A stretch of DNA of 64,000 bases from Escherichia coli O127:H6 str. E2348/69 (GTDB taxonomy: Bacteria > Pseudomonadota > Gammaproteobacteria > Enterobacterales > Enterobacteriaceae). Within the stretch, counting starts at the first letter, position 1, and each line of letters starts with the position of its first letter. The position numbers were made by a program, and so were the translations under genes. Below the pieces are notes generated by a model that saw nothing but the letters and a program-made list of their open reading frames with translations, was not told the origin of the DNA and did no database searches. Shown here piece after piece: positions 12,697-64,000 of this stretch. The stretch lies in NCBI RefSeq assembly GCF_000026545.1, contig NC_011601.1; one strand, given 5' to 3'.

Positions 12697-13057
12697 CGTA
12701 ACTTACTCATTATTCTTACATTGACGACTAAGCTGCGGGCAAAGTAACGCCTTTCCGGGTGTGAACCGATGGCCTCGTGTCTAGTCGCGTCGCCAACCTC
12801 ACGGTTATCGTCAGCTCAAAGAGGCGCAGAGTGTCGGTTGCCCGTTTTTCATGCGGAAAAACAGCGCAATTATCAAAGAAACAGACTGGGTATTACTCTC
12901 CAGAAATATTTCCATCTACCGGTAAGGACTGCAACCCGCAGCCCGCTAACTGCCTGAAAGATCAATACGTCTTACACCATTGCTGCGTGGATGATCGGTC
13001 GGGCAAAATGGGTTATTCCGTAAAATTTCTTGTTTTAACAAGGATGGACACGGAAAC
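12697..13057 (-). promoter_or_regulatory. rne 5' untranslated leader (autoregulatory)
   Basis: Long non-coding stretch upstream of the rne start; a leader of about 360 nt is known for rne; exact 5' end not determinable from sequence. Confidence 0.45.
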
Positions 13058-52128: not shown

Positions 52129-53247
52129 TCAAATAACCAACTTAACCCATTCCTGACCTCGAGTATCGTTATAGCGATCGGTGGTTGCCTGGACTTTATG
52201 TCCTAGTAATGTTTTTGTATCAATACCCTGTGCACGGTACAGCCGTTCTGATAGAGAGCGTTGTTCATGAAATGTTGGCGGAGTTTTTCCTGCTGGTGGA
52301 ATTATCCCAGCCAGATCCCGTGCTTTGGCAAAGTAGTCGCTCAGGTTGTCTTTACTCATCGGCTTCGGTTGTTTCTGGTGCCGACTATGGATTAGATATG
52401 GACTTAATATTCTGTCTCGGCACCCATCAATAACTTCTTTTAACGTTATCCCAATGGCATCACAGCGTAGTGTAAGCGGTAACGCCAGACGCATTCCGGT
52501 TTTTCCCTGGGTGATATGCAAGTGTTCGTTCCACACATCTGAAAAACGCATGTGGCAAATGTCATCACGGCGCTGACCAGTAACAATCGCAAGAAGCATT
52601 GCGTTACGGATAAAGTGTTTTTCAGGCGTTGCATTGTAAATTTTTTGCCAGTCTTCCATGGTGAGCCTGGCTCTGGTTACTTTAGGGATCGGTTTACGGG
52701 TAGCCTCCGGAGGATTCCATCCAGGAGGAACTTCCCCTGCATGCTGTGCTTCTTTATAAATATCAACCCATAATCCACGATTTACTCTCGCTGTGCTGAC
52801 CATGTCTTTATCCAGCCACTCATCCAGTATTAATGCAAAGTCTCTTACTTCCAGTTCTTTCAATGGGTGGTTTCCCAGACGGGAAACCAGGTATGCAGCC
52901 ATTCGGGTTTTTTCTTTGTGAGTTGTAGCTGCAATATCTCCATTTTTCAGTCGCGTGTCCTGTATTTTCAGATATCGATCAACCCATGCCTTTAATCTGA
53001 TACCCTGACGTTTTGTTGCTGACGGACTTTCATCAATTTTGCGCATGAAATATTCAGCTTCTGCTGCAGCTATTCGCTGATTGGCTGTGGAAGCGATTTT
53101 TTCTGCCTTACCTTTGTCTGTTCCGAGTCCGTGAAATTTTCCAGTCACAGGATTTTTATACTGGTAGTAAACTCTGCCAGTTCTGCGATCAAACTTTTCG
53201 TAAAGACCGGCTACGTCAGTGCTGTTTTTTCGTGGCCTCGGTGACAT
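52129..53247 (-). CDS. int: prophage tyrosine integrase (lambda Int family)
   Basis: 372-aa ORF; C-terminal catalytic region HEQRSLSERLY...LLGHK...RYNDTRGQEW parallels lambda Int. Confidence 0.9.
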   Translation of the reverse strand: MSPRPRKNSTDVAGLYEKFDRRTGRVYYQYKNPVTGKFHGLGTDKGKAEKIASTANQRIAAAEAEYFMRKIDESPSATKRQGIRLKAWVDRYLKIQDTRLKNGDIAATTHKEKTRMAAYLVSRLGNHPLKELEVRDFALILDEWLDKDMVSTARVNRGLWVDIYKEAQHAGEVPPGWNPPEATRKPIPKVTRARLTMEDWQKIYNATPEKHFIRNAMLLAIVTGQRRDDICHMRFSDVWNEHLHITQGKTGMRLALPLTLRCDAIGITLKEVIDGCRDRILSPYLIHSRHQKQPKPMSKDNLSDYFAKARDLAGIIPPAGKTPPTFHEQRSLSERLYRAQGIDTKTLLGHKVQATTDRYNDTRGQEWVKLVI

Positions 53248-53494
53248 GAGTTAAAATCTCCTTCAGTGCATCATCATCGCCAGTATGAATTTCCGGCGCA
53301 ATTCCCGTTTCACCAGGCCCAACAAATACTGCTCGGCGATCTATCAGCCAACGCCCACGAATTTTTTGTGGTCTTGGAACGATGTATCCTAGTTTTCCGT
53401 ATTTCACCAGGGTAGTGTTTGTTATTGGGAGACTGAACCGTTTTGGTTTCCACTCGTCGAGCGTTATCAGGTACTGTTCGCTCATGGCTATCAC
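53216..53494 (-). CDS. xis: prophage excisionase
   Basis: Small ORF overlapping the int start by 32 nt; winged-helix Xis-like sequence (YLITLDEW...); true start may be 53485. Confidence 0.7.
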   Translation of the reverse strand: MIAMSEQYLITLDEWKPKRFSLPITNTTLVKYGKLGYIVPRPQKIRGRWLIDRRAVFVGPGETGIAPEIHTGDDDALKEILTHVTEATKKQH

Positions 53495-53546
53495 TCCGGA
53501 ACGCGCCAGTTGCAGAATATCAACGACAACTGGCGACGGTTGAACA

Positions 53547-56018
53547 TTAAAAATCAGCCTGATTCGGGATCAGTTTTTGCCAGATAGCTGAAACGTATTT
53601 TGCCTGGTGACGAGCGTCATCAAGTGCATTATGGCGCTCACCTTCGAATGGAATAGCCGTTCTGGCATCGAAGTCTATGGCTTTCCCCAGCTCAACGATT
53701 GTGCGTACATCGCGATCGTTGTAGTAACGCCACGGGCAGGGGATCCCCTGCCGTTCGTATGAACGGCGCAAAATCGTGTTGTCGAAGTTGGCTCCATTTC
53801 CCCAAACCTGAACAAAAAATTCACCGGAGTTTTCGTCGATAAATTCCCGCAATTGTAACAGTGCATCATCTAACGGGATTTCATCGGTCATAATGGCAGA
53901 TTGCGCTTCGCGTGATTGCTTAAGCCACCATTTAATGGTGTCCCGATCAATGACTCCGCCAGCAGTTTCCAGATCGATAGTCTTACTAAATTCCGGTCCC
54001 ATATCTCCGGTTTGCGGATCGAAAAATATTGCACCTATTGAGATGATCGGGGCATCAGGATTTTTTCCCATGGTTTCAAGGTCGATCATTAGATGGTCAC
54101 ACGTCCTGCTGGTGGATGTGATTTCGTGATGACCGTTCACCTTAATTGAGTGATCTGCCGTCTCGCCAGTCTCATTATCGCTATTGTGATGCTGATTGCC
54201 GCCAGTGTTCTCCTTGTGTGGATGCTCAGCGCCTTCCATTTCCTCCGGATCATCTTCCTGAACTTCAACCTGATACTCTTCATCGAATGTTTCCTGGTAT
54301 GTTGCGTCGCCCATCACCGCACCACAATCAGGGCAGTTGCCGCCGCCGGTCTGACCGCAGGCGGTGCAGACTTTTTCCACTTCCTGTTGCACTACTGGTT
54401 CAGGTAGTTTCGTTTCTGGCTCGTTTTGTTGCGTATTTGGGCTGTTTTGTTCCGCTTTCTGGTCGTTCTGTTCCGTTTCTTGCTGGTTCTGGTTCACAGA
54501 ATCGCGGGTTTCAATCCCCTTCACCCATTTCGGATCATTCGGATCGCTAATCCCTGCAACAAATTCACCACGTGATACTGCAAGCAGTTCATCGGCGTCA
54601 GGCTGGCTGATATTGGCTGCCTGCATAATTTTGTTTACTTCGTCAGCGGTAACTTTTACCGGCCCTGGTTGTGCGGTCGTGTCAGATGCACCAGTATTTT
54701 GTTGTGAACCTGAGTATGTACCGTTTTTGCGGGCGAAATATTCTTCTTTCGTGATTTCAGTAGCCCCTGCAGCCAGTGCCTTATCCAGACCAGAAAGTTT
54801 GTTTGCGCGACCGTATTTTTCGCTATCCTTGTCGGTGAAGAGGAAGTAGAACGGCCCTTCACGCTCTACAGATGGTTCGACTTCCACTTTGCATTCGGTT
54901 TTTTCGTTGTCCGGAATTGCCGTTTCCACTGCATCAGTTTCTGGTACTGGCGACGAGAGAGTATCAGTTGCGCTCTGATTTGTTCCTTCATCTTCAAACA
55001 CGCCCTTTGTAGTCAGGTATTCAGTAATGTATTTGTTCAGTGCCACAGGGTCTTTGTGAATGTCGATCGGACGTTCACGGACAAGGCCAAAAATAGTCTG
55101 GCGGTCGTAGCGAAGGGCATCAGGCTGTTTGCGCATTGATGCCGAGATACGCTTCCAGTCTTCGCGGTAGTTGTCGATAACTTCATTTTTTGCCCAGCGA
55201 TGGATGCTGCCGTCAATGTTTCCGGCATCCACATCACCAGGCCAGAGAGCGTAGGCCAGTTCGTCATCCAGTGTTTTCCATGTCTGCTTGTATTCGCGAT
55301 GAGTGGCAGCAATGACCGGGCTGATTTTTCCTGTTGAATTTTCAGTGTTCTGTTGATTGGCTCTGGCGCGGGCGAGATCAACAACAGACGTGTATTTTCC
55401 GGTTTCCTTGCGTTCACCTTCGCGACGTTTTTTCCAGATGCGCATCTCTGCCTGAATTTCGGGCCATTTGGCACCAGGCTTACATTTATGCTTAACCCAC
55501 CCGATGGCATGCAGCTTAAGCTCCGGATACATGGCGTTAACTTCTGGCATTTTCATCAACGCTTCAACGATATGTCCGTCGAATGTTGCCATGTCTTCCT
55601 GCAACAATTCCTGTGCGCTAATCACCATATCAACGGTGATGTTTTCACATGTGTCGAACTTAACCATGACAGCGTTCTGTACTTCAGGGGCCAGCTTGTC
55701 AAAAGTGACGTTCATCGGATCGGATTCAGTCTCAACCGGGACAAAAGAAGCAGAATCCTCATCCCAGCGGTTTTCCTGCATATATTCAGCATCCCATGAA
55801 TCGAGGGCAGGGCGGGGTATGCCAGGTTTATCCTCGCAGACAATAAATTTATAAGCGCAGTCCTGAGCAGCCGGATAATGTTCCAGGAATTGCCAGTGAA
55901 ATTTTGCTCGAGCACGGCGTTCGTCGCCAGCTTCAATGGCTGTGGCTACAGCCACAGCGCCTTCTTCCCTTGTTGCCAGTTCGTCAGGAATAGCGGCGCA
56001 AATAAAGACTTTACTCAT
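53547..56018 (-). CDS. prophage exonuclease with C-terminal DnaQ-like (DEDDh) 3'-5' exonuclease domain
   Basis: ORF 53547-56054 (alternative start MSKVF at 56018); C-terminus has DLETMG and HNALDDA motifs; central Gln/Asn/Glu-rich linker and a Cys4 cluster CTACGQTGGGNCPDCG. Confidence 0.7.
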   Translation of the reverse strand: MSKVFICAAIPDELATREEGAVAVATAIEAGDERRARAKFHWQFLEHYPAAQDCAYKFIVCEDKPGIPRPALDSWDAEYMQENRWDEDSASFVPVETESDPMNVTFDKLAPEVQNAVMVKFDTCENITVDMVISAQELLQEDMATFDGHIVEALMKMPEVNAMYPELKLHAIGWVKHKCKPGAKWPEIQAEMRIWKKRREGERKETGKYTSVVDLARARANQQNTENSTGKISPVIAATHREYKQTWKTLDDELAYALWPGDVDAGNIDGSIHRWAKNEVIDNYREDWKRISASMRKQPDALRYDRQTIFGLVRERPIDIHKDPVALNKYITEYLTTKGVFEDEGTNQSATDTLSSPVPETDAVETAIPDNEKTECKVEVEPSVEREGPFYFLFTDKDSEKYGRANKLSGLDKALAAGATEITKEEYFARKNGTYSGSQQNTGASDTTAQPGPVKVTADEVNKIMQAANISQPDADELLAVSRGEFVAGISDPNDPKWVKGIETRDSVNQNQQETEQNDQKAEQNSPNTQQNEPETKLPEPVVQQEVEKVCTACGQTGGGNCPDCGAVMGDATYQETFDEEYQVEVQEDDPEEMEGAEHPHKENTGGNQHHNSDNETGETADHSIKVNGHHEITSTSRTCDHLMIDLETMGKNPDAPIISIGAIFFDPQTGDMGPEFSKTIDLETAGGVIDRDTIKWWLKQSREAQSAIMTDEIPLDDALLQLREFIDENSGEFFVQVWGNGANFDNTILRRSYERQGIPCPWRYYNDRDVRTIVELGKAIDFDARTAIPFEGERHNALDDARHQAKYVSAIWQKLIPNQADF

Positions 56019-56110
56019 TTGTTTTAACCTCATGACAGATTTAAGGATGAACAAATCCCTGCCATTGCTGGCATATAAGAATGAAACCGGATATTTATTA
56101 CGGAACTGTT

Positions 56111-56302
56111 TTAAAGACCTGCCGGGATTTCGATATTATCCTGGTGAATAACTTTATCGACCGGGTAACAGTTACCGGGAATTTTCTGTTCGGTTGCTGC
56201 AGTCATACACTACTGCATTGTCCTGTGAACACTGACTGCAATATCAACTGGCTCTCCGGAAACAAGAAAAACTGTCAGAACAAGCACAAATGCTGAATTC
56301 AT
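56111..56302 (-). pseudogene. ydfD: ydfD-like lysis-protein gene interrupted by an in-frame amber codon
   Basis: MNSAFVLVLTVFLVSGEPVDIAVSVHRTMQ then TAG, then the frame continues CMTAATEQKIPGNCYPVDKVIHQDNIEIPAGL; total length equals a 63-aa gene; start overlaps the dicB stop as ATGA. Confidence 0.6.
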
Positions 56303-56487
56303 TGTGCACATCCTTTTGGCATCAGACGTAAACGAGCCAGCATTGAAACAATGCATATTTTATTTAATAGCTCCCGTTCTTGTTTTCTCTTGTTAATGGC
56401 ATCTTCAGTAAATACTGGGTTACTGATAGTGACACCAATTTCAAAACAACCTTCAGACGTATTAACGTTTGGTAATAACGTTTTCAT
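56299..56487 (-). CDS. dicB: cell-division inhibitor DicB
   Basis: 62 aa from internal Met (MKTLLPNVNTSEGCFEIGVTISNPVFTEDAINKRKQERELLNKICIVSMLARLRLMPKGCAQ); lies downstream of dicF in the dicA-side operon. Confidence 0.75.
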   Translation of the reverse strand: MKTLLPNVNTSEGCFEIGVTISNPVFTEDAINKRKQERELLNKICIVSMLARLRLMPKGCAQ

Positions 56488-56656
56488 TATCGCGTCCTCA
56501 ACAATGAATTTTGTGATGCAGTGCCTGGTGCCTCCAGGTGACGTTAACCAGTTAACAATTAACGCCGGATACAGAGAATCCACCCATAACACTGTTTTTG
56601 GTTTTAACTGTTCCGCGTGCGCTCAGCCGCATTCACCACATCACAAAATTCACTTT

Positions 56657-56714
56657 AAAAAGGGCGGCAGAGCAGTCACGGAGTAAAACTGATACCGCCA
56701 AACGTCACCAGAAA
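56657..56714 (-). ncRNA. dicF: DicF small RNA
   Basis: Minus-strand sequence TTTCTGGTGACGTTTGGCGGTATCAGTTTTACTCCGTGACTGCTCTGCCGCCCTTTTT matches the recalled DicF sequence including its terminator hairpin and U-tail. Confidence 0.75.
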
Positions 56715-57055
56715 ATTGATAACAGAGGGCGTTGCAGCGGGGTTGTCACTTAAGCGTATGGTCAACCTGACAACCCGGTGTCCTCAACGGGGGAAGGAAT
56801 AACCCCGCCATACTTACCGCCGCGCCATTTCGCGGATTGCCACAACCGGAAGCGCACGGTCGACGAAAATTTAACGACAGGCTATCTATGAACCAGCTAC
56901 CTCGCCGTGCGCTTTCGCGTTATGGTCTGACTTTTCAGGGAAATATCCTTTCAGTAAACTGTCAGTGCCGGATGCTCACCCGTGTCCGGCGCACGCACTC
57001 CACCTCATCCGTGGAGAACTCCTTAATTACCAACCTTAGCTTCGTTGGTTAGCTA

Positions 57056-57274
57056 TTAACGCGGGTATGTAATCATTCTGGCAATGCTTAATGTCGCTGC
57101 TTTTTCCAGATTAGTGATATCCTGCTCCAGAGCGGACAGATTTTCAGCCTGCTTAGCCCTGGCTTCATTGGCCCATTTCAGATCCTGCGCTGCATTAATT
57201 TTCTGGCGCATCCACTCATAAAGTTCATCATCGGTATAGTCTGGCGCGATGATGACGGGTTCTCGTTTCTGCAT
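57056..57274 (-). CDS. ydfC: Qin-type small prophage protein YdfC-like
   Basis: 72-aa ORF in the expected position and size between ydfB and dicF. Confidence 0.6.
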   Translation of the reverse strand: MQKREPVIIAPDYTDDELYEWMRQKINAAQDLKWANEARAKQAENLSALEQDITNLEKAATLSIARMITYPR

Positions 57275-57303
57275 ACTGATTCCTCGCGGTGCTGTTTCGC
57301 TTA

Positions 57304-57432
57304 TCAGCCGTTAGATTTTGCCGAACTGGAAAGTGCCTGTTTAAATTCGCTGAAGCTGAGAGCTTCTTCGCCTTCGGCAAGACCTTCGAAGTATTCTTCG
57401 TAAGCCTTTTCCATGATTGTGTCGAAATCCAT
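57304..57432 (-). CDS. ydfB: Qin-type small prophage protein YdfB-like
   Basis: 42-aa ORF (MDFDTIMEKAYEEYFEGLAEGEEALSFSEFKQALSSSAKSNG), below the ORF-track cutoff; found by direct translation. Confidence 0.55.
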   Translation of the reverse strand: MDFDTIMEKAYEEYFEGLAEGEEALSFSEFKQALSSSAKSNG

Positions 57433-57433
57433 A

Positions 57434-57589
57434 TCACCCACCTGAATTTCTTTCCAGCCAGCGACGCGCTCCAGATTCGGTTTTAAACGTTTTGCTTTTG
57501 GTATACGTCATCGCGGTGAACGTACCGTCCTGGTTGGGGAACACGCCACATACCAGAGATTCGCTGTTGCCAAGATCGATAGTATCCAT
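57434..57589 (-). CDS. ydfA: Qin-type small prophage protein YdfA-like
   Basis: 51 aa from internal Met (MDTIDLGNSESLVCGVFPNQDGTFTAMTYTKSKTFKTESGARRWLERNSGG); the ORF-track frame extends to 57682. Confidence 0.55.
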   Translation of the reverse strand: MDTIDLGNSESLVCGVFPNQDGTFTAMTYTKSKTFKTESGARRWLERNSGG

Positions 57590-57780
57590 GTTGACCTCAT
57601 TTCCCCTTAACGCCGGGGTAGCGGAACTGTTTGCTGAGAACACCGTGCGGTGTCTTGATGGATCGTAATTTAGTTTTCTCATGAATATTGATCAAGTGCT
57701 TTTGATGATAAAACTCAATATTTAATGCAAAATAAAGCCAATACATTGAAATGTAAGGCTTTAAAATTTGTGAAGGGGGG

Positions 57781-58188
57781 TTATTGATGTTTGTTACGTT
57801 TGCGAGCTTCTAGTAGCTCGGTGAATAGGCGATTAAAATTCTCAACGCGGGCACGGAGTTCGCTGATTTGTGCTTGCTGCTCTGATTTTGGAAGTGCGCG
57901 ATACAATCGCAACATCTCCAACTCATCTTCCGATAAGTCTAAGGCGCTGTTGAGTGCAACTGGTGGATCTGGTGTTTTATCCTCGTCACCAAACAGTATC
58001 CAAGTTGGTGAACATTGCAATACCTCAGCCAGGCGATGCAAATTTTGCCCGCGCGGGGCTGTATGGTCGCTTTCCCATAGTGAAATTGATGAGCCAGATA
58101 CGCCAGCAGCTTTGCTTAAATCGTTTTGACTTAAACCAACCTGTTTGCGTCTTTCTCTAATTCGTTGACCTAAAGTTTTCTCGTTCAT
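57781..58188 (-). CDS. dicA: prophage repressor, DicA-like (XRE-family HTH)
   Basis: 135-aa ORF; HTH region QRIRERRKQVGLSQNDLSKAAGVSGSSISLWE and the VLQCSPTWILFGDEDK segment recalled from DicA. Confidence 0.85.
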   Translation of the reverse strand: MNEKTLGQRIRERRKQVGLSQNDLSKAAGVSGSSISLWESDHTAPRGQNLHRLAEVLQCSPTWILFGDEDKTPDPPVALNSALDLSEDELEMLRLYRALPKSEQQAQISELRARVENFNRLFTELLEARKRNKHQ

Positions 58189-58209
58189 ATTTAGATATCT
58201 TAATAACCC

Positions 58210-58239
58210 TTGACTTGAGATTCCTTGAGTGATTACTAT
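58210..58239 (+). promoter_or_regulatory. candidate rightward promoter and operator region of the dicA/dicC switch
   Basis: -35 TTGACT (58210-58215), 18-nt spacer, -10-like TACTAT (58234-58239); three TTGAG pentamers 11 and 14 nt apart. Confidence 0.4.
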
Positions 58240-58265
58240 TGAGAAAACTCAACTTTGGAGGGGTG

Positions 58266-58493
58266 ATGTTTAAATCAGACGTAATTAATTTTTATGGGAC
58301 GAAAGCCAAAGTAGCGAAAGCTGCTGGTGTTGATCCATCTGCTGTTTCTCAATGGGGGGAACTGGTTCCTGAAGGTCGCGCGATGCGCCTGCAAGAGGCA
58401 TCCGGCGGGGAACTTCAGTACGACCCCAAAGTTTATGACGAATATCGTAAGGCAAAGCGGGCGGGGCGGTTGAACAATGAAAATCACCCCTGA
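58266..58493 (+). CDS. dicC: Cro-like regulator, DicC-like
   Basis: 75 aa from internal Met (MFKSDVINFYGTKAKVAKAAGVDPSAVSQWG...); divergent from the repressor gene. Confidence 0.75.
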   Translation: MFKSDVINFYGTKAKVAKAAGVDPSAVSQWGELVPEGRAMRLQEASGGELQYDPKVYDEYRKAKRAGRLNNENHP

Positions 58494-59028
58494 ACAGGTT
58501 TGTGAGGCTCTGGATGCCTGGGTATGCCGACCAGGAATGACACAGGAGCAGGCGACGATATTAATCACGGAAGCATTCTGGGCTCTGAAAGAACGCCCGA
58601 ACATCGATGTTCAACGCGTCACGTTTAATGATGGCGAGGTTGATCAACGGGCGCTGTGCGTTAACCGGGTGAAGATATTCGAACGCTGGAAAGCTATCGA
58701 CACCAGGGATAAGCGGAAAAAATTCACGGCGCTGATTCCGGCAATTATGGAGGCTATCCGAATTAGTGATTTCAGGCTGTATCGTGAGATCAGTGATGGA
58801 AAAAGCATTACGTACATGATCGCCGGATTAAACAAAGAATATGGCGATGTGGTGGAGTCCGGGCTGCTTTTTGCGGATCCATCTGTTGTGGAACGTGAGA
58901 CTGACGAGCTTATAGAAAAAGCTATTGCTTTCAAGCATGCGTATCGTCAGCAATATCAATATTACTTTGCAGATAAACAAATGTCTGCCAGGGGTTCGTA
59001 TGAGTATCGATGCACTACGATGGGCTAA
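58477..59028 (+). CDS. prophage early protein, YdaT-like (CII-analogue family)
   Basis: 183-aa ORF overlapping the dicC stop; segment KFTALIPAIMEAIRISDFRLY resembles the recalled YdaT core; function uncertain. Confidence 0.5.
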   Translation: MKITPEQVCEALDAWVCRPGMTQEQATILITEAFWALKERPNIDVQRVTFNDGEVDQRALCVNRVKIFERWKAIDTRDKRKKFTALIPAIMEAIRISDFRLYREISDGKSITYMIAGLNKEYGDVVESGLLFADPSVVERETDELIEKAIAFKHAYRQQYQYYFADKQMSARGSYEYRCTTMG

Positions 59029-60040
59029 AAAGGTGAAAACCGGCAGTTCATCCAGTAAGTCTGTATTGACCTGGCTTGCTGATATGTGCGGTGCCGATTT
59101 GTGTGCATACCCGTCTGTATCTGCACTGGCAGAAGTAACGGAACTGAACAAAAAGACTGTGCAGGACAGCTTACGACACCTGATGGAGATTGGGTTAATT
59201 GTTGATACCGGTGAGAGAAAAGGCAGAACAAAGCAAATTGTGGTGTACCGACTTATCGGTGTAGAAGAAAGTGTTGCCGAGCCTGAATACACCCAAAAAC
59301 GGGAGTCTTTAAAGGTGGGTAAAATCGGTGCTGTTAATAAAAACAGTACCGAAAATGGTTATGTTTCAGCACAAAACAGACCCAAAAACGGAACTCTTAG
59401 CTGCATGGAAAATAACCAAAGACACCCAAATTTTCCATCAAAGACACCCAAAAACGGATCACGGAACCCAAAGGAACCCAAAGAGCTAAACCCCACACAT
59501 AACGCACGCGAGAGTGCTCCGACCAGTGAGCAGAAAGTTTTGTCGTTACAGGCTGCACCTCCTGTATTCCTGGATGGCCTGAGCGAACCCATCGAAAAAT
59601 TTCCGATGACCGATAGCTGGTATCCGTCACGGGATTTTCGACGACGGGCTGCGTTGTGGGGGATGGCTTTGCCGGAGACAGAATTCACACCTGCTGAACT
59701 TGCCGCCTTCCGGGACTACTGGGCTGCTGAGGGGAAAGTGTTTACGCAGATTCAGTGGGAGCAGAAATTCGCCCGTCACGTAAATCACGTCAGGGCGCAG
59801 GTTAAACCAGTCAGCAAGGGGGTAAACCATGCAGCAGCACCAGGTGACACCGCATCACGGGCAGTTCAGGAAATTCGGGCAGCACGTGAGCAGTGGGAAC
59901 GTGAAAACGGATTTATCAGCGACGGAAACGGCCTGGAAGCTGTGGGAACTCATGGGGGAGGTTTATTCGAACCGCTGGACCCAGAAGAACGGGGCCGCAC
60001 CTTCGAAGCTCTGGATTGCACAGATTGGTGCGATGACTGA
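59000..60040 (+). CDS. phage replication initiation protein (O-like, N-terminal winged HTH, DnaT-like C-terminal region)
   Basis: Start taken at MSIDALRWAKKV (ORF track 58925); HTH segment LAEVTELNKKTVQDSLRHLMEIGLIV. Confidence 0.7.
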   Translation: MSIDALRWAKKVKTGSSSSKSVLTWLADMCGADLCAYPSVSALAEVTELNKKTVQDSLRHLMEIGLIVDTGERKGRTKQIVVYRLIGVEESVAEPEYTQKRESLKVGKIGAVNKNSTENGYVSAQNRPKNGTLSCMENNQRHPNFPSKTPKNGSRNPKEPKELNPTHNARESAPTSEQKVLSLQAAPPVFLDGLSEPIEKFPMTDSWYPSRDFRRRAALWGMALPETEFTPAELAAFRDYWAAEGKVFTQIQWEQKFARHVNHVRAQVKPVSKGVNHAAAPGDTASRAVQEIRAAREQWERENGFISDGNGLEAVGTHGGGLFEPLDPEERGRTFEALDCTDWCDD

Positions 60041-61240: not shown

Positions 61241-62083
61241 ATGAGGAAAAAATCGTTTGGACGTTGCCCGTTTGATTTCGACGAAGATGTAAAAAAAATA
61301 GCCGCGATAAATAAATATATCCATGCGAAATTTGAGAGGCATAAAAATAAAATAGATAACCTAAAGGGGGTGGAACAAAAATTGATGGTTTTACATTACT
61401 TTAATGTACTGAATGAACTTAGTAATCAGGCTATATTTTCTTTGAGTACCGGAGCCTTTTCAGCATCGGAAGTATTAACTAGAGTTATAATGGAACAGGC
61501 TGCCAATCAATTTTATATAGCAATTGATGATGGAAAAAATGCACAAGCATTACTCAAGGGTAGTAAGAAATTAGTTCATAGTAATGGGAAACGGTGGCTG
61601 GAGTGTTTAAAATCCAAAGAAATGACTAATCCAGCAGCAGATGAAAGGATTCGTATCGGAAAAGAGCTAACTGATATGTTTAATAGATTGTGGCCAAATA
61701 CACCTGAATATCCTGGAACCAAAAAGCTTTTCGAAGTAATTGGCTGGGAAACACACTATCATGCCTATTACGTCCCTCTTTGTGATTCAATACATACATT
61801 CTCTGATGATATGGCAAATATAGTATCTCTATATAATGCAATCCAAAGCGATAAAACTACTGCTATCGAACTCACTCTTGCAGTTAAACAAGAAAATAAA
61901 CGGCTGGCAATTTATAATGTCGTAATTGCTATTGGCCTGCGGTGTGAGGCCTTAGTAAATGTATTTAACTCTTTAGGTTATCGAGATATTATAACTGAAA
62001 TGGCGCCAACAATAGATGCAGTCAACCAGATTATAATTCGATATGATGATTTCGAACATTCCAGAATTTTTTATTGTCAATAA
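61241..62083 (+). CDS. hypothetical protein, AT-rich cargo gene (predicted mostly alpha-helical; function unknown)
   Basis: 280-aa ORF with AGGAGG SD 7 nt upstream and TATAAT -10 at about 61196; Lys/Ile/Asn-rich codon usage unlike the flanking prophage backbone. Confidence 0.7.
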   Translation: MRKKSFGRCPFDFDEDVKKIAAINKYIHAKFERHKNKIDNLKGVEQKLMVLHYFNVLNELSNQAIFSLSTGAFSASEVLTRVIMEQAANQFYIAIDDGKNAQALLKGSKKLVHSNGKRWLECLKSKEMTNPAADERIRIGKELTDMFNRLWPNTPEYPGTKKLFEVIGWETHYHAYYVPLCDSIHTFSDDMANIVSLYNAIQSDKTTAIELTLAVKQENKRLAIYNVVIAIGLRCEALVNVFNSLGYRDIITEMAPTIDAVNQIIIRYDDFEHSRIFYCQ

Positions 62084-62140
62084 TTAATTGGCAGAATTCG
62101 TACATGCACAACAACTAGTTATAGTTGACCTATTTCGCTC

Positions 62141-62709
62141 TTGAGAGACAACCATACTCAAATCTTCCACATTGCAGGAGATTTGAGTATGAATACGTCA
62201 CCGAGGAACAAAGACAGTATCATAGGCCCAAAAAGACCACTTCAGATATCTCATATCTGGGGGCTCCAAATCCGGCTTGAACTGGAAGGTAAAACGCGTG
62301 ATTTAGCTCGGTTTCAAGCAGAGCTACGGTGCTGCAACTGAAAAACTGGCAGTCCTATCCAATTTGAGATAACCAAAGGGACAAGAGAAGCTGTTTCTGC
62401 ATTGATAAAGCTTGGCAATTTACGCAGTAAAGACTACTTGTTCCGATCTCGGGTCGGTACTAACCAACACATATCAATCCTGCAATATAACCGAATCTTT
62501 CATAGGAGGGAGAAAAGCTTGGTCTCGAAGATTCGCTTTACAGCACACATTCCATGAGAAGAACAAAACCTTGCCTTGTCTGCAAGAAAACTAAGAATCT
62601 CCGGGTGATCCAACTTCCGTTGGGCCATAAGAAAACGGAAAGCACAGTTCGTTATCTGGGTATAGAAGTTGATGATGCATTAGAGATCTCTGAATCGATC
62701 GAAGTCTAA
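62141..62709 (+). pseudogene. decayed tyrosine recombinase (integrase-family) gene
   Basis: Recombinase segments spread over three frames: ...KRPLQISHIWGLQIRLELEGKTRDLARFQAELRCC / FEITKGTREAVSALIKLGNLRSKDYLF / SMRRTKPCLVCKKTKNLRVIQLPLGHKKTESTVRYLGIEVDDALEISESIEV (HxxR...Y catalytic tail). Confidence 0.6.
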
Positions 62710-63121: not shown

Positions 63122-64000
63122 ATGAAAAGACTATATTATACCCATCATGATAGTCGAACCTTAAAACTTGCTATAGAAGGTGATGTTTCTGATAATGCGA
63201 ATATTTTTACAGTAATTGTAGGTAAAAATGGCGTTGGAAAAAGCAGATTGTTATCTCAGATTGCTAAAGACTGTATTCAAGATATTCATTTCTTGAAAAC
63301 TTTTAATCCATTATTTGACAGAGAAATAACACCAAAGTTAATTGCCGTATCTACCAGCCCATTCGATAAATTCCCTCCAGGGCGTAGGTCATTAAATCAC
63401 CAAAGGAAAGAAAATAATTATCGCTATGTGGGTATGCGTGGAGAAGGCCCCTTCGGCGTATCAAATGCCGTATCCCTTTTATCTTCAGCAGCGAGAGGTT
63501 GGCTAGAGAAACTTGCTTATTCAGAAAATCCTGCAAATTTACTCGATGTTTTTCATTCTATTGATTTTGAGCCCCATATAGAGTTTGTATTTAAACCAAC
63601 TTACAACGGACCGGACACTCCTGACTATAACTTCATTGGTGTATATTCAGATGAGATATTAACGGAAGTTAAGGAGTTATATTTAAAATACAATATAAAA
63701 ATTGACAGGAAGAATATTGAGAGTCTCTTAAAGTTAAACTCCGAATCACGTCATGATATTTACGAAGCACTGGTTGAAATTAATCGATTTGAACCTGAAC
63801 GTAGGGCTGTAACCTTGTCAGTCGATTTTACCAATGGTGAAACATTGGTTGGCTCGACTTATGCGAATAATTATTTTTCTAGATCAATTCTTAAACTTAT
63901 GAACGCTGGCTTCATGAGATTGATGGATATGCGACTCATAAAAAAAAGCTATGGTCCCATGTCACTTAAACGTGCGAGCTCGGGAGAACAATGTTTATTA
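63122..64000 (+). CDS. ABC-type (AAA_15/AAA_21/OLD-like) ATPase, N-terminal 293 codons; runs off the window end
   Basis: Open frame from the ATG at 63122 with no stop to 64000 (absent from the ORF track for that reason); Walker A VIVGKNGVGKSRLL near residue 33; ABC-signature-like SSGEQ at the last codons; AT-rich. Confidence 0.7.
   Translation, partial: MKRLYYTHHDSRTLKLAIEGDVSDNANIFTVIVGKNGVGKSRLLSQIAKDCIQDIHFLKTFNPLFDREITPKLIAVSTSPFDKFPPGRRSLNHQRKENNYRYVGMRGEGPFGVSNAVSLLSSAARGWLEKLAYSENPANLLDVFHSIDFEPHIEFVFKPTYNGPDTPDYNFIGVYSDEILTEVKELYLKYNIKIDRKNIESLLKLNSESRHDIYEALVEINRFEPERRAVTLSVDFTNGETLVGSTYANNYFSRSILKLMNAGFMRLMDMRLIKKSYGPMSLKRASSGEQCLL

Follow-up and report, generated by a model that had tools for sequence, protein, structure and literature searches.

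Does the dic locus in this stretch of DNA reproduce that of the K-12 prophage Qin in full, repressor specificity included, or does it join the same effector genes to a different control region? The K-12 Qin dicAC-dicBF locus was reportedly described by Bejar, Cam, Bouché and Faubladier between 1986 and 1990. Its mechanism is covered by Ragunathan et al. 2023 (PMC10448788) and also in PMC5069750, and the DicF/DicB division-inhibitor module is already known. We describe here its counterpart in a stretch of 64,000 nucleotides (the window), the whole of which is 100% identical to the chromosome of Escherichia coli E2348/69; because of this identity, the dic and ydf genes and DicF are real and far above chance. 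The locus is, with high confidence, the early-left regulatory and cargo module of a defective lambdoid prophage in EPEC E2348/69, homologous to K-12 Qin dicAC-dicBF, with another immunity allele as its control part.

Table 1. Features of the E2348/69 dic locus, in window coordinates.
Feature	Coordinates	Strand	Basis or remark
Distal leftward region: 824-aa 3′-5′ exonuclease, excisionase, integrase; end adjoins potC	52129-56018	-	RefSeq; Pfam Rv2179c-like domain
ydfD pseudogene	56111-56302	-	Nonsense at codon 31, GAG to TAG, window base 56212; RefSeq flags internal stop
dicB, 62 aa	56299-56487	-	Internal ATG of 97-aa mechanical ORF; Pfam DicB PF05358, NCBIfam NF049927; RefSeq
dicF small RNA with terminator hairpin and U-run	56657-56714	-	Identity to K-12 dicF
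Predicted 23-bp duplex in dicF leader	56840-56925	-	Minimum free energy (MFE) helix, 56925-56900 paired with 56865-56840
ydfC, 72 aa	57056-57274	-	phrog_1744; RefSeq
ydfB, 42 aa	57304-57432	-	phrog_2061; RefSeq
ydfA, 51 aa, DUF1391	57434-57589	-	Pfam PF07151, 96.9 bits; RefSeq
Swapped immunity cassette, 0.73 kb	57656-58383		Sliding identity along alignment with K-12 Qin
Candidate dicBp (PL-like), TTGATC, 17-nt spacer, TAAATT	57667-57695	-	Inferred; positional alignment to K-12
Operator-like site ATGAGAAAACTAAA (minus-strand reading), overlapping dicBp spacer and -10	57669-57682		Motif scan
Operator-like site ATGATAAAACTCAA, upstream of dicBp -35	57705-57718		2 mismatches to motif; conserved in HannyBb
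Terminator-like hairpin and U-run, downstream of repressor gene	57727-57763	-	Fold of 57715-57790 (-)
DicA-family immunity repressor, 135 aa, mEp460/HannyBb-type allele	57781-58188	-	NCBIfam NF007257
18-bp near-palindrome TATTTAGATATCTTAATA, abutting repressor start codon and overlapping its first base	58188-58205		Inverted repeat I9
Candidate dicC promoter (PR-like), TTGACT, 18-nt spacer, TACTAT	58210-58239	+	Promoter scan; inferred
Operator-like palindrome TTGAGAAAACTCAA	58239-58252		Exact motif match; position of K-12 Oc
dicC, Cro-type regulator, 75 aa	58266-58493	+	NF007282, 167.6 bits (cut-off 130); Pfam P22_Cro, 64 bits

Gene content and the DicF RNA

An immunity locus of the Qin dicA/dicC type is followed in this module by ydfABC-dicF-dicB, and the minus strand encodes DicF and its terminator. 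Along that strand the order is the 135-aa repressor, ydfA (51 aa), ydfB (42 aa), ydfC (72 aa), dicF, and dicB (62 aa), with dicC divergent on the plus strand; the original prediction that gene sizes and order match those of Qin was confirmed for every element it listed. Its description of the interval 56657-58493 as a complete operon needs amending: the elements are present, but the interval ends at the dicF 3′ end and leaves out dicB, 170 bases to the left, as well as the ydfD pseudogene. Two small genes had also been said to fall below the ORF cut-off, which is true for their real sizes only; the mechanical ORFs containing ydfA, ydfB, and dicB are 82, 45, and 97 aa long.

The dicF segment, terminator included, is identical to K-12 dicF at 58/58 positions, and Rfam RF00039 matches 56662-56713 on the minus strand over its full model (1-52 of 52), scoring 76.7 bits (E = 3.6e-15), above its gathering threshold of 48. 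The RNA and its terminator are thus readable on the minus strand, as first proposed, inside the dicBF gene run between ydfC and dicB. The terminator hairpin (-15.9 kcal/mol) is followed by UUUUU. The RefSeq record of E2348/69 has no RNA feature for dicF. Two places on the E2348/69 chromosome match a composite query with the dicF segment, one of them elsewhere than this locus. Processing of the dicF transcript by RNase III has been shown in K-12 only (PMC10448788); in E2348/69, a 190-nt species ending in the terminator U-run would be expected to start at 56846-56850, inside the predicted leader duplex. The MFE fold of the 411-nt leader also drew the DicF terminator into a long-range helix with upstream sequence, which was not trusted, and the local 23-bp duplex alone was used.

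DicB is 62/62 identical to its K-12 counterpart, under the same WP accession, and matches its profiles over the full 62 aa (PF05358, 136.8 bits, cut-off 27; NF049927, 132.8 bits, cut-off 100). The proposal that the strain carries a host-cell-division control module is supported. The alignments suggested for the small ORFs gave 47/51 identical residues for YdfA, 42/42 for YdfB, and 71/72 for YdfC. The locus also resembles Qin in the architecture of its dicBp and dicCp promoters and operators and in having rem and hokD rightward. It differs in ydfD, whose nonsense change was found by comparing its translation with K-12, and in the exonuclease, xis, int, and replication genes O and P, which are intact in E2348/69 and truncated or lost in Qin; the exonuclease is full-length here (824 aa), whereas ydfE of Qin is a fragment of it cut short by IS2.

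Control elements around the repressor gene

The repressor matches the NCBIfam model for transcriptional repressor DicA (NF007257) over positions 1-135 of 135 with 238.3 bits against a cut-off of 101. An HTH_3 domain occupies its N-terminal part (residues 10-64), and Pfam reports HTH families only, with no S24 peptidase domain in the 135 aa, which makes it a repressor of the short Gifsy/DicA type. RefSeq labels it "helix-turn-helix domain-containing protein," and the name DicA is absent; the dicC product is named "dicB transcriptional regulator DicC." The dicC gene diverges from the repressor gene, 77 bp from the repressor start. The region has the makeup of a lambdoid immunity region: divergent repressor and cro genes, inferred operators at both promoters, and, rightward, a CII-like gene (phrog_163), a replication initiator, and a P-like loader. 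Gifsy-type repressors, P22 immC, and the lambda immunity region likewise have divergent repressor and Cro-like genes with operators at PR-like and PL-like promoters, although sequence similarity to E2348/69 is confined to the HTH domain. The E2348/69 repressor resembles the Gifsy type in being short and without a RecA-cleavage module; an antirepressor is therefore the expected route of induction (PMC10448788).

We infer the operators and both promoters from position and conservation. The candidate dicC promoter has a layout like that of K-12 Qin (TTGACT-17-TATCTT) at the equivalent position, and directly past its -10 element stands TTGAGAAAACTCAA, where K-12 has Oc, TTGTTAGTTATGACTAACAA. Oc was defined experimentally in K-12 (PMC3441716). 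The candidate dicBp, placed by alignment with K-12 TTGACC-17-TAATCT, agrees with consensus at 8/12 positions and was not reported by a simple promoter scan; ATGAGAAAACTAAA holds the place of TTAGTCATGGCTAA in K-12 dicBp. Three matches to the operator-like motif with at most 2 mismatches occur in the 64-kb window, all of them in the two intergenic regions flanking the repressor gene, at places where K-12 has TTAG-N6-CTAA sites, Oc among them. All three are conserved in phage HannyBb, where 3 were found against 0.10 expected and 0/200 shuffles reached 3. Once 3 mismatches are allowed, the motif count over the whole window does not exceed chance (11 found, 6.8 expected); what remains informative for operators is that the three best matches cluster and are conserved in HannyBb.

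Downstream of the repressor gene, the fold of 57715-57790 on the minus strand (-12.6 kcal/mol, z = -3.3) was equalled by 0/200 shuffles. The K-12 dicBF operon begins at dicBp, in front of ydfA, and does not include dicA (PMC10448788). With a terminator-like hairpin downstream of it and a dicBp-like promoter between that hairpin and ydfA, the E2348/69 repressor gene is most likely a transcription unit apart from ydfABC-dicF-dicB; the original prediction was right that a DicA-family repressor is present, but most likely wrong to place it in one operon with the genes downstream.

Immunity specificity

Identity to Qin is 97 to 100% over 56000-57655, falls to about 50 to 60% over 57656-58383, and is about 90% beyond. 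The divergent segment is a cassette comprising the repressor gene, the two promoter/operator regions, and the N-terminal coding part of dicC; DicC shares 71% identity with K-12 DicC, with 30 divergent N-terminal residues and a near-identical C-terminal part. At dicCp and dicBp the Oc-type sequence TTGTTAGTyATrACTAACAA of K-12 is replaced by sites of the TTGAGAAAACTCAA type. Since the cassette is swapped and different operator-like palindromes occupy the same positions, the E2348/69 element is probably heteroimmune to Qin. With an effector part of nearly K-12 sequence and a control part of another allele, K-12-type DicA probably does not repress the E2348/69 module, nor the E2348/69 repressor a K-12-type dicBp.

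Similarity of the repressor and the RNA to DicA and DicF, the lack of which had been named as grounds for rejecting the original prediction, is clearly present, the repressor scoring well over the DicA family cut-off and DicF having the K-12 sequence. Were this a genuine copy of Qin dicA-dicB, homoimmune and with unchanged repressor specificity, it would share that family score (238 bits), the Qin gene sizes and order, and the identical or near-identical effector genes. Such a copy is nevertheless very improbable: the repressor has just 56% identity to K-12 DicA, with a different HTH recognition region, another palindrome replaces Oc and its relatives when a single base change in K-12 Oc abolishes DicA binding (PMC3441716), and the chromosomal site is potB/potC, whereas Qin is found beside rspB.

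The immunity allele of E2348/69 is shared with the temperate phages mEp460_ev081 (LR597641.1) and HannyBb (PP925841.1), whose repressors are 96% identical to that of E2348/69, whose Rem is identical to E2348/69 Rem, and in which the dicF-dicB module is present. Both genomes come from isolated phages and are complete, in contrast to the defective, mosaic element of E2348/69, and in HannyBb the dicF-to-repressor segment is annotated differently from ydfABC. Among 5,426 complete E. coli genomes, 796 carry this immunity cassette allele and 4,755 retain the dicBF segment. The multi-copy dicF loci of EHEC O157:H7 and the PPompW-type prophages (Balasubramanian 2016, PMC5069750; Melson and Kendall 2019, as cited in PMC7873438) likewise place dicF and dicB in lambdoid prophages of an attaching-effacing pathogen; the repressor of PPompW is a third allele (53% identical), and its Rem shows 71 to 75% identity. 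EHEC-specific targets of DicF are pchA and stx2.

Host prophage and role of the module

The module sits in a defective mosaic lambdoid prophage of about 40 kb between potB and potC, with replication, lysis, and some morphogenesis genes, which differs from Qin in insertion site and overall structure. Coverage of the window's prophage part by any single phage record reaches 49% at most. The module had been taken to identify the prophage family, which it does not: it occurs in many prophage contexts (PMC5069750). Some decay has occurred, as three IS elements, a deletion from the head protease gene into a tail gene, and the ydfD nonsense mutation attest.

By the mechanism that we propose, the short, non-cleavable repressor made from 57781-58188 would bind 14-bp sites of the TTGAG-N4-CTCAA type, one past the dicC -10 element and two overlapping or flanking dicBp, and would thereby keep both promoters off. 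On loss of repression, which by analogy with K-12 may come through the Rem antirepressor, a spontaneous DicC-dependent switch, or stress, a single leftward transcript would run through ydfA-ydfB-ydfC-dicF-dicB and read on towards exo-xis-int. Identity to K-12, where these steps were established, suggests that RNase III and RNase E would then release DicF, with its own terminator as 3′ end; that DicF would pair, with Hfq, with ftsZ mRNA and other mRNAs; that DicB would recruit MinC to the septum, both actions blocking division; and that DicB would also block phages that enter through ManYZ.

The rem gene of the prophage lies about 9 kb right of the module, and its product is 96% identical to K-12 Rem. 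Rem proteins of the E2348/69 and K-12 types differ at 3/83 residues, while the repressors are 56% identical. One speculative and rather doubtful explanation is that Rem recognizes the invariant linker and C-terminal blocks (CSPTW..FGDEDK; LP.SEQ...RARV.NFN.LF) of heteroimmune DicA-family repressors and not their variable DNA-binding part; in that case a single Rem could act in trans to derepress the dicBF modules of several heteroimmune prophages, the second dicF-segment locus of E2348/69 perhaps among them. Alternatively, the three differing Rem residues set specificity.

The loss of head and tail genes, the three IS elements, and the ydfD pseudogene would suit a silent relic, permanently repressed or unexpressed and without consequence for the host, as would the strong repression of the K-12 operon under laboratory conditions (PMC10448788). 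We regard this as unlikely. Apart from ydfD the module genes are intact, as are both candidate promoters and the operator-like sites, dicF and dicB match the functional K-12 copies exactly, and the dicBF segment is kept in the large majority of complete genomes counted above; in K-12, moreover, DicF builds up in stationary phase despite repression, and the operon switches on spontaneously in about 1% of cells (PMC10448788).

A functional module, in turn, might chiefly serve defence against superinfecting phages, with DicB blocking ManYZ-dependent DNA entry, rather than division control as such. This is possible, if not the reading that we favor: K-12 DicB, to which that of E2348/69 is identical, protects against phages according to work cited in PMC10448788, and the same prophage carries a Septu PtuA/PtuB defence system. 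On the other hand, no PADLOC model matches DicB or YdfA-C, protection requires expression of an operon that is normally repressed, and defence is compatible with division inhibition.

Beyond correct annotation, the importance of the locus is little. From the RefSeq annotation alone, with no dicF RNA and a repressor not named DicA, the intact DicF/DicB module of EPEC E2348/69 would be missed, and its non-K-12 immunity allele means that results on K-12 DicA/Oc regulation should not be carried over to this strain untested. In EHEC, a related pathogen, DicF regulates virulence genes; an identical dicF in EPEC, together with a second matching place on the chromosome, may interest researchers of EPEC small RNAs.

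Gene content and annotation

The region 56000-59500 was read with ORFs called on both strands, and protein products were searched against NCBIfam and Pfam. All elements of the original prediction are present in the order given, as supported by ORF calls and Rfam, NCBIfam, Pfam, PHROG, and K-12 matches. The prediction had placed the complete operon within 56657-58493; the genes exist, but dicB falls outside this interval, which runs only as far as the 3′ terminus of dicF.

Features of the dic module and its control region in E2348/69
Feature	Coordinates	Strand	Support or sequence
DicB, 62 aa	56299-56487	minus	DicB family, 136.8 bits
DicF RNA	56662-56713	minus	Rfam RF00039, 76.7 bits (threshold, 48), E = 3.6e-15, full model
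ydfC, 72 aa	57056-57274	minus	PHROG family and K-12 protein match
ydfB, 42 aa	57304-57432	minus	PHROG family and K-12 protein match
YdfA, 51 aa	57434-57589	minus	DUF1391 (YdfA family)
Candidate dicBp	57695 down to 57667	minus	TTGATC-17-TAAATT (K-12, TTGACC-17-TAATCT)
Operator-like palindrome, position of K-12 dicBp site	57682-57669		ATGAGAAAACTAAA
Operator-like palindrome, third copy	57705-57718		ATGATAAAACTCAA
DicA-type repressor, 135 aa	57781-58188	minus	NF007257 "transcriptional repressor DicA," 238 bits (cutoff, 101), full length
Candidate dicCp	58210 to 58239	plus	TTGACT-18-TACTAT (K-12, TTGACT-17-TATCTT)
Operator-like palindrome, position of K-12 Oc	58239-58252		TTGAGAAAACTCAA
DicC, 75 aa	58266-58493	plus	DicC family, 167.6 bits (cutoff, 130); P22 Cro type

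The predicted similarity of the repressor to DicA was borne out by NCBIfam, and Pfam assigned this protein to helix-turn-helix families only; the ydfB and ydfC products match no Pfam or NCBIfam family. An 82-aa ORF called mechanically around ydfA (57434-57682, minus strand) begins at an ATG within the candidate leftward (PL-like) promoter/operator, dicBp, and is an ORF-calling artifact; the true start is the ATG at 57589, with a GAGG Shine-Dalgarno sequence upstream. A window-wide Rfam scan returned three matches above the gathering score, namely, DicF, the rne 5′ UTR element (12721-13057, minus strand), and the SraB small RNA (14918-15086, plus strand), the last two being markers of ordinary core chromosome ~40 kb left of the prophage.

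The sequence at 56200-58600 is 100% identical to the EPEC E2348/69 chromosome (NZ_CP059840.2, 2888118-2890518, reverse strand). RefSeq names ydfA, ydfB, ydfC, dicB, "dicB transcriptional regulator DicC," and a ydfD pseudogene (internal stop) at the locus, and the repressor is labeled only "helix-turn-helix domain-containing protein." No dicF RNA feature is annotated between dicB and ydfC in NZ_CP059840.2 or in K-12 JM109 (NZ_CP150878.1); the Rfam score is 76.7 bits in both.

In K-12, the 53-nt form of DicF needs RNase E and the 190-nt form RNase III, both being cut from a dicBp-initiated transcript (PMC10448788). The dicF leader shows only a few base differences from K-12 in a base-by-base alignment. 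A predicted 23-bp duplex in this leader, pairing 56925-56900 with 56865-56840, holds 56846-56850, the expected 5′ end of a predicted 190-nt species terminating in the terminator U-run. A long-range helix between the terminator and upstream sequence in the MFE fold was not trusted.

Comparison with K-12 Qin and the immunity region

Base-by-base alignment with the Qin cryptic prophage of K-12 showed 97 to 100% identity over 56000 to ~57655, just ~50 to 60% over 57656 to ~58383, and ~90% beyond that point, with zero differences in 56213-56788, a stretch that takes in dicB, dicF, and some of the dicF leader. As predicted, the minus strand carries 58 nt identical to K-12 dicF. DicB (62/62), YdfB (42/42), YdfC (71/72), and YdfA (47/51) align closely with their K-12 counterparts, whereas the repressor is 56% identical to DicA by BLASTP (75/135 in global alignment) and DicC is 71% identical, its differences clustering in the N-terminal 30 residues. 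The proposed match to Qin in gene sizes and order holds. The segment of ~50 to 60% identity, a classic lambdoid immunity cassette, takes in the repressor gene together with the leftward promoter region on one side and, on the other, the repressor-cro intergenic region and the portion of the Cro-like gene that encodes DNA binding.

YdfD is a lysis protein in K-12. Here, ydfD (56111-56302) is inactivated by a single GAG-to-TAG nonsense change relative to K-12 (codon 31, base 56212), next to dicB and dicF sequences identical to those of K-12.

Both inferred promoters, dicBp and the rightward (PR-like) dicCp, align position by position with their K-12 counterparts. The experimentally defined DicA operator of K-12, Oc (TTGTTAGTCATAACTAACAA), lies directly after the dicC -10 element, and a single base change in it abolishes DicA binding (PMC3441716); K-12 dicBp has an Oc-related TTAG-N6-CTAA site within its spacer and -10 element. 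In E2348/69, these positions hold a different palindrome, a putative operator. Its three copies are the sole matches to the motif with at most 2 mismatches in the whole 64 kb. With 3 mismatches allowed, the motif is not enriched window-wide (11 found versus 6.8 expected), and so the operator argument rests on clustering and position. Phage HannyBb keeps all three sites at matching positions (3 found versus 0.10 expected; 3 reached in 0 of 200 shuffles). From the replacement of Oc by a different conserved palindrome and the one-base sensitivity of Oc, we infer that the module would be heteroimmune to Qin.

Downstream of the repressor gene lies a hairpin with a U-run (57727-57763; z = -3.3; equally stable in 0 of 200 shuffles), and this gene is probably transcribed separately from ydfABC-dicF-dicB. 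Abutting the repressor start codon is an 18-bp near-perfect palindrome, TATTTAGATATCTTAATA (58188-58205), unrelated to the TTGAG-N4-CTCAA motif; the equivalent place in K-12 holds TTAGCTAATGCTAA.

The prophage element and its relatives

The module resides in a ~40-kb prophage between potB and potC. To the left of dicB lie, in order, a full-length 3′-5′ exonuclease gene, which in K-12 is truncated by IS2 (the fragment named ydfE), xis, and int. To the right of dicC are genes for a cII-like YdaT-family protein, an O-like initiator, and a P-like loader, followed by a cargo islet, IS481, hokD, rem, a Q-region, and genes for lysis, terminase, portal, and tail. This is a defective prophage: it contains three IS elements, and its head protease gene is annotated as a fragment that directly adjoins a fragment of a tail gene. 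Between the replication genes and a Septu pair, 61241-62709 (14042-15510 in the chromosomal locus record L001) holds a gene for a DUF5677 protein and a tyrosine-recombinase pseudogene with a frameshift and looks like an inserted islet. The Septu anti-phage pair, carried as cargo, is complete (63122-64000, on to ~65117 outside the window; L001 15923-17918), although split by the window's right end, and comprises PtuA, an AAA ATPase (PADLOC, 549 bits), and PtuB, an HNH nuclease (278 bits).

The best coverage of the window's prophage part by any one phage record is 49%; the element is a mosaic and is neither Qin nor any single named phage. Published work reports dicBF in many prophage contexts and, for some pathogens, in more than one copy per genome (PMC5069750, PMC7873438); contrary to the original proposal, the module therefore cannot identify the prophage family. 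Of 5,426 complete E. coli genomes, 4,755 match some part of the dicBF segment, 2,271 contain 80% or more of it, and 796 carry the immunity cassette at ≥90% identity. The E2348/69 chromosome has a second match to the dicF segment 56640-56800 elsewhere and a single copy of the cassette and therefore may carry two dicF loci. The 254-kb Aeromonas phage AP1 record (MT713136.1) contains 247 bp (249906-250152) 98.8% identical to 56478-56724, from the dicB start through dicF; this stretch is unannotated and close to the record end, and such a phage is an unexpected place to meet E. coli prophage DNA.

The original finding is correct, but it is ordinary: the module is already known, and the strain is fully annotated and has been studied closely. 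What needed correcting were the coordinates, the repressor allele, the transcription units, and the prophage identity.

Rem and repressor alleles

The rem gene, encoding the prophage antirepressor, lies outside the window (L001 19705-19956, approximately window 66904-67155). Phages HannyBb and mEp460_ev081 share the immunity allele of E2348/69, with repressors 96% identical to its own and the identical Rem. The PhiR42_1 repressor is 56% identical to that of E2348/69, making it as distant as K-12 DicA, and its Rem is 96% identical; we read these sequences as a K-12-type pair. Further repressor alleles (52 to 54% identical) occur in PPompW prophages and in a record named "Rac," with Rem 60 to 75% identical. 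Distinct Rem variants accompany distinct repressor alleles across the four prophage types. Invariant blocks in the linker and C-terminal half are common to all four repressor alleles, which vary in the helix-turn-helix recognition region. Between the E2348/69 and K-12 types, Rem is 96% identical, with only 3 of 83 residues differing, versus repressors of 56% identity. We speculate that Rem recognizes a conserved part of the repressors or else that the three differing residues set specificity; Rem-repressor recognition is the sole slightly new angle of this analysis.
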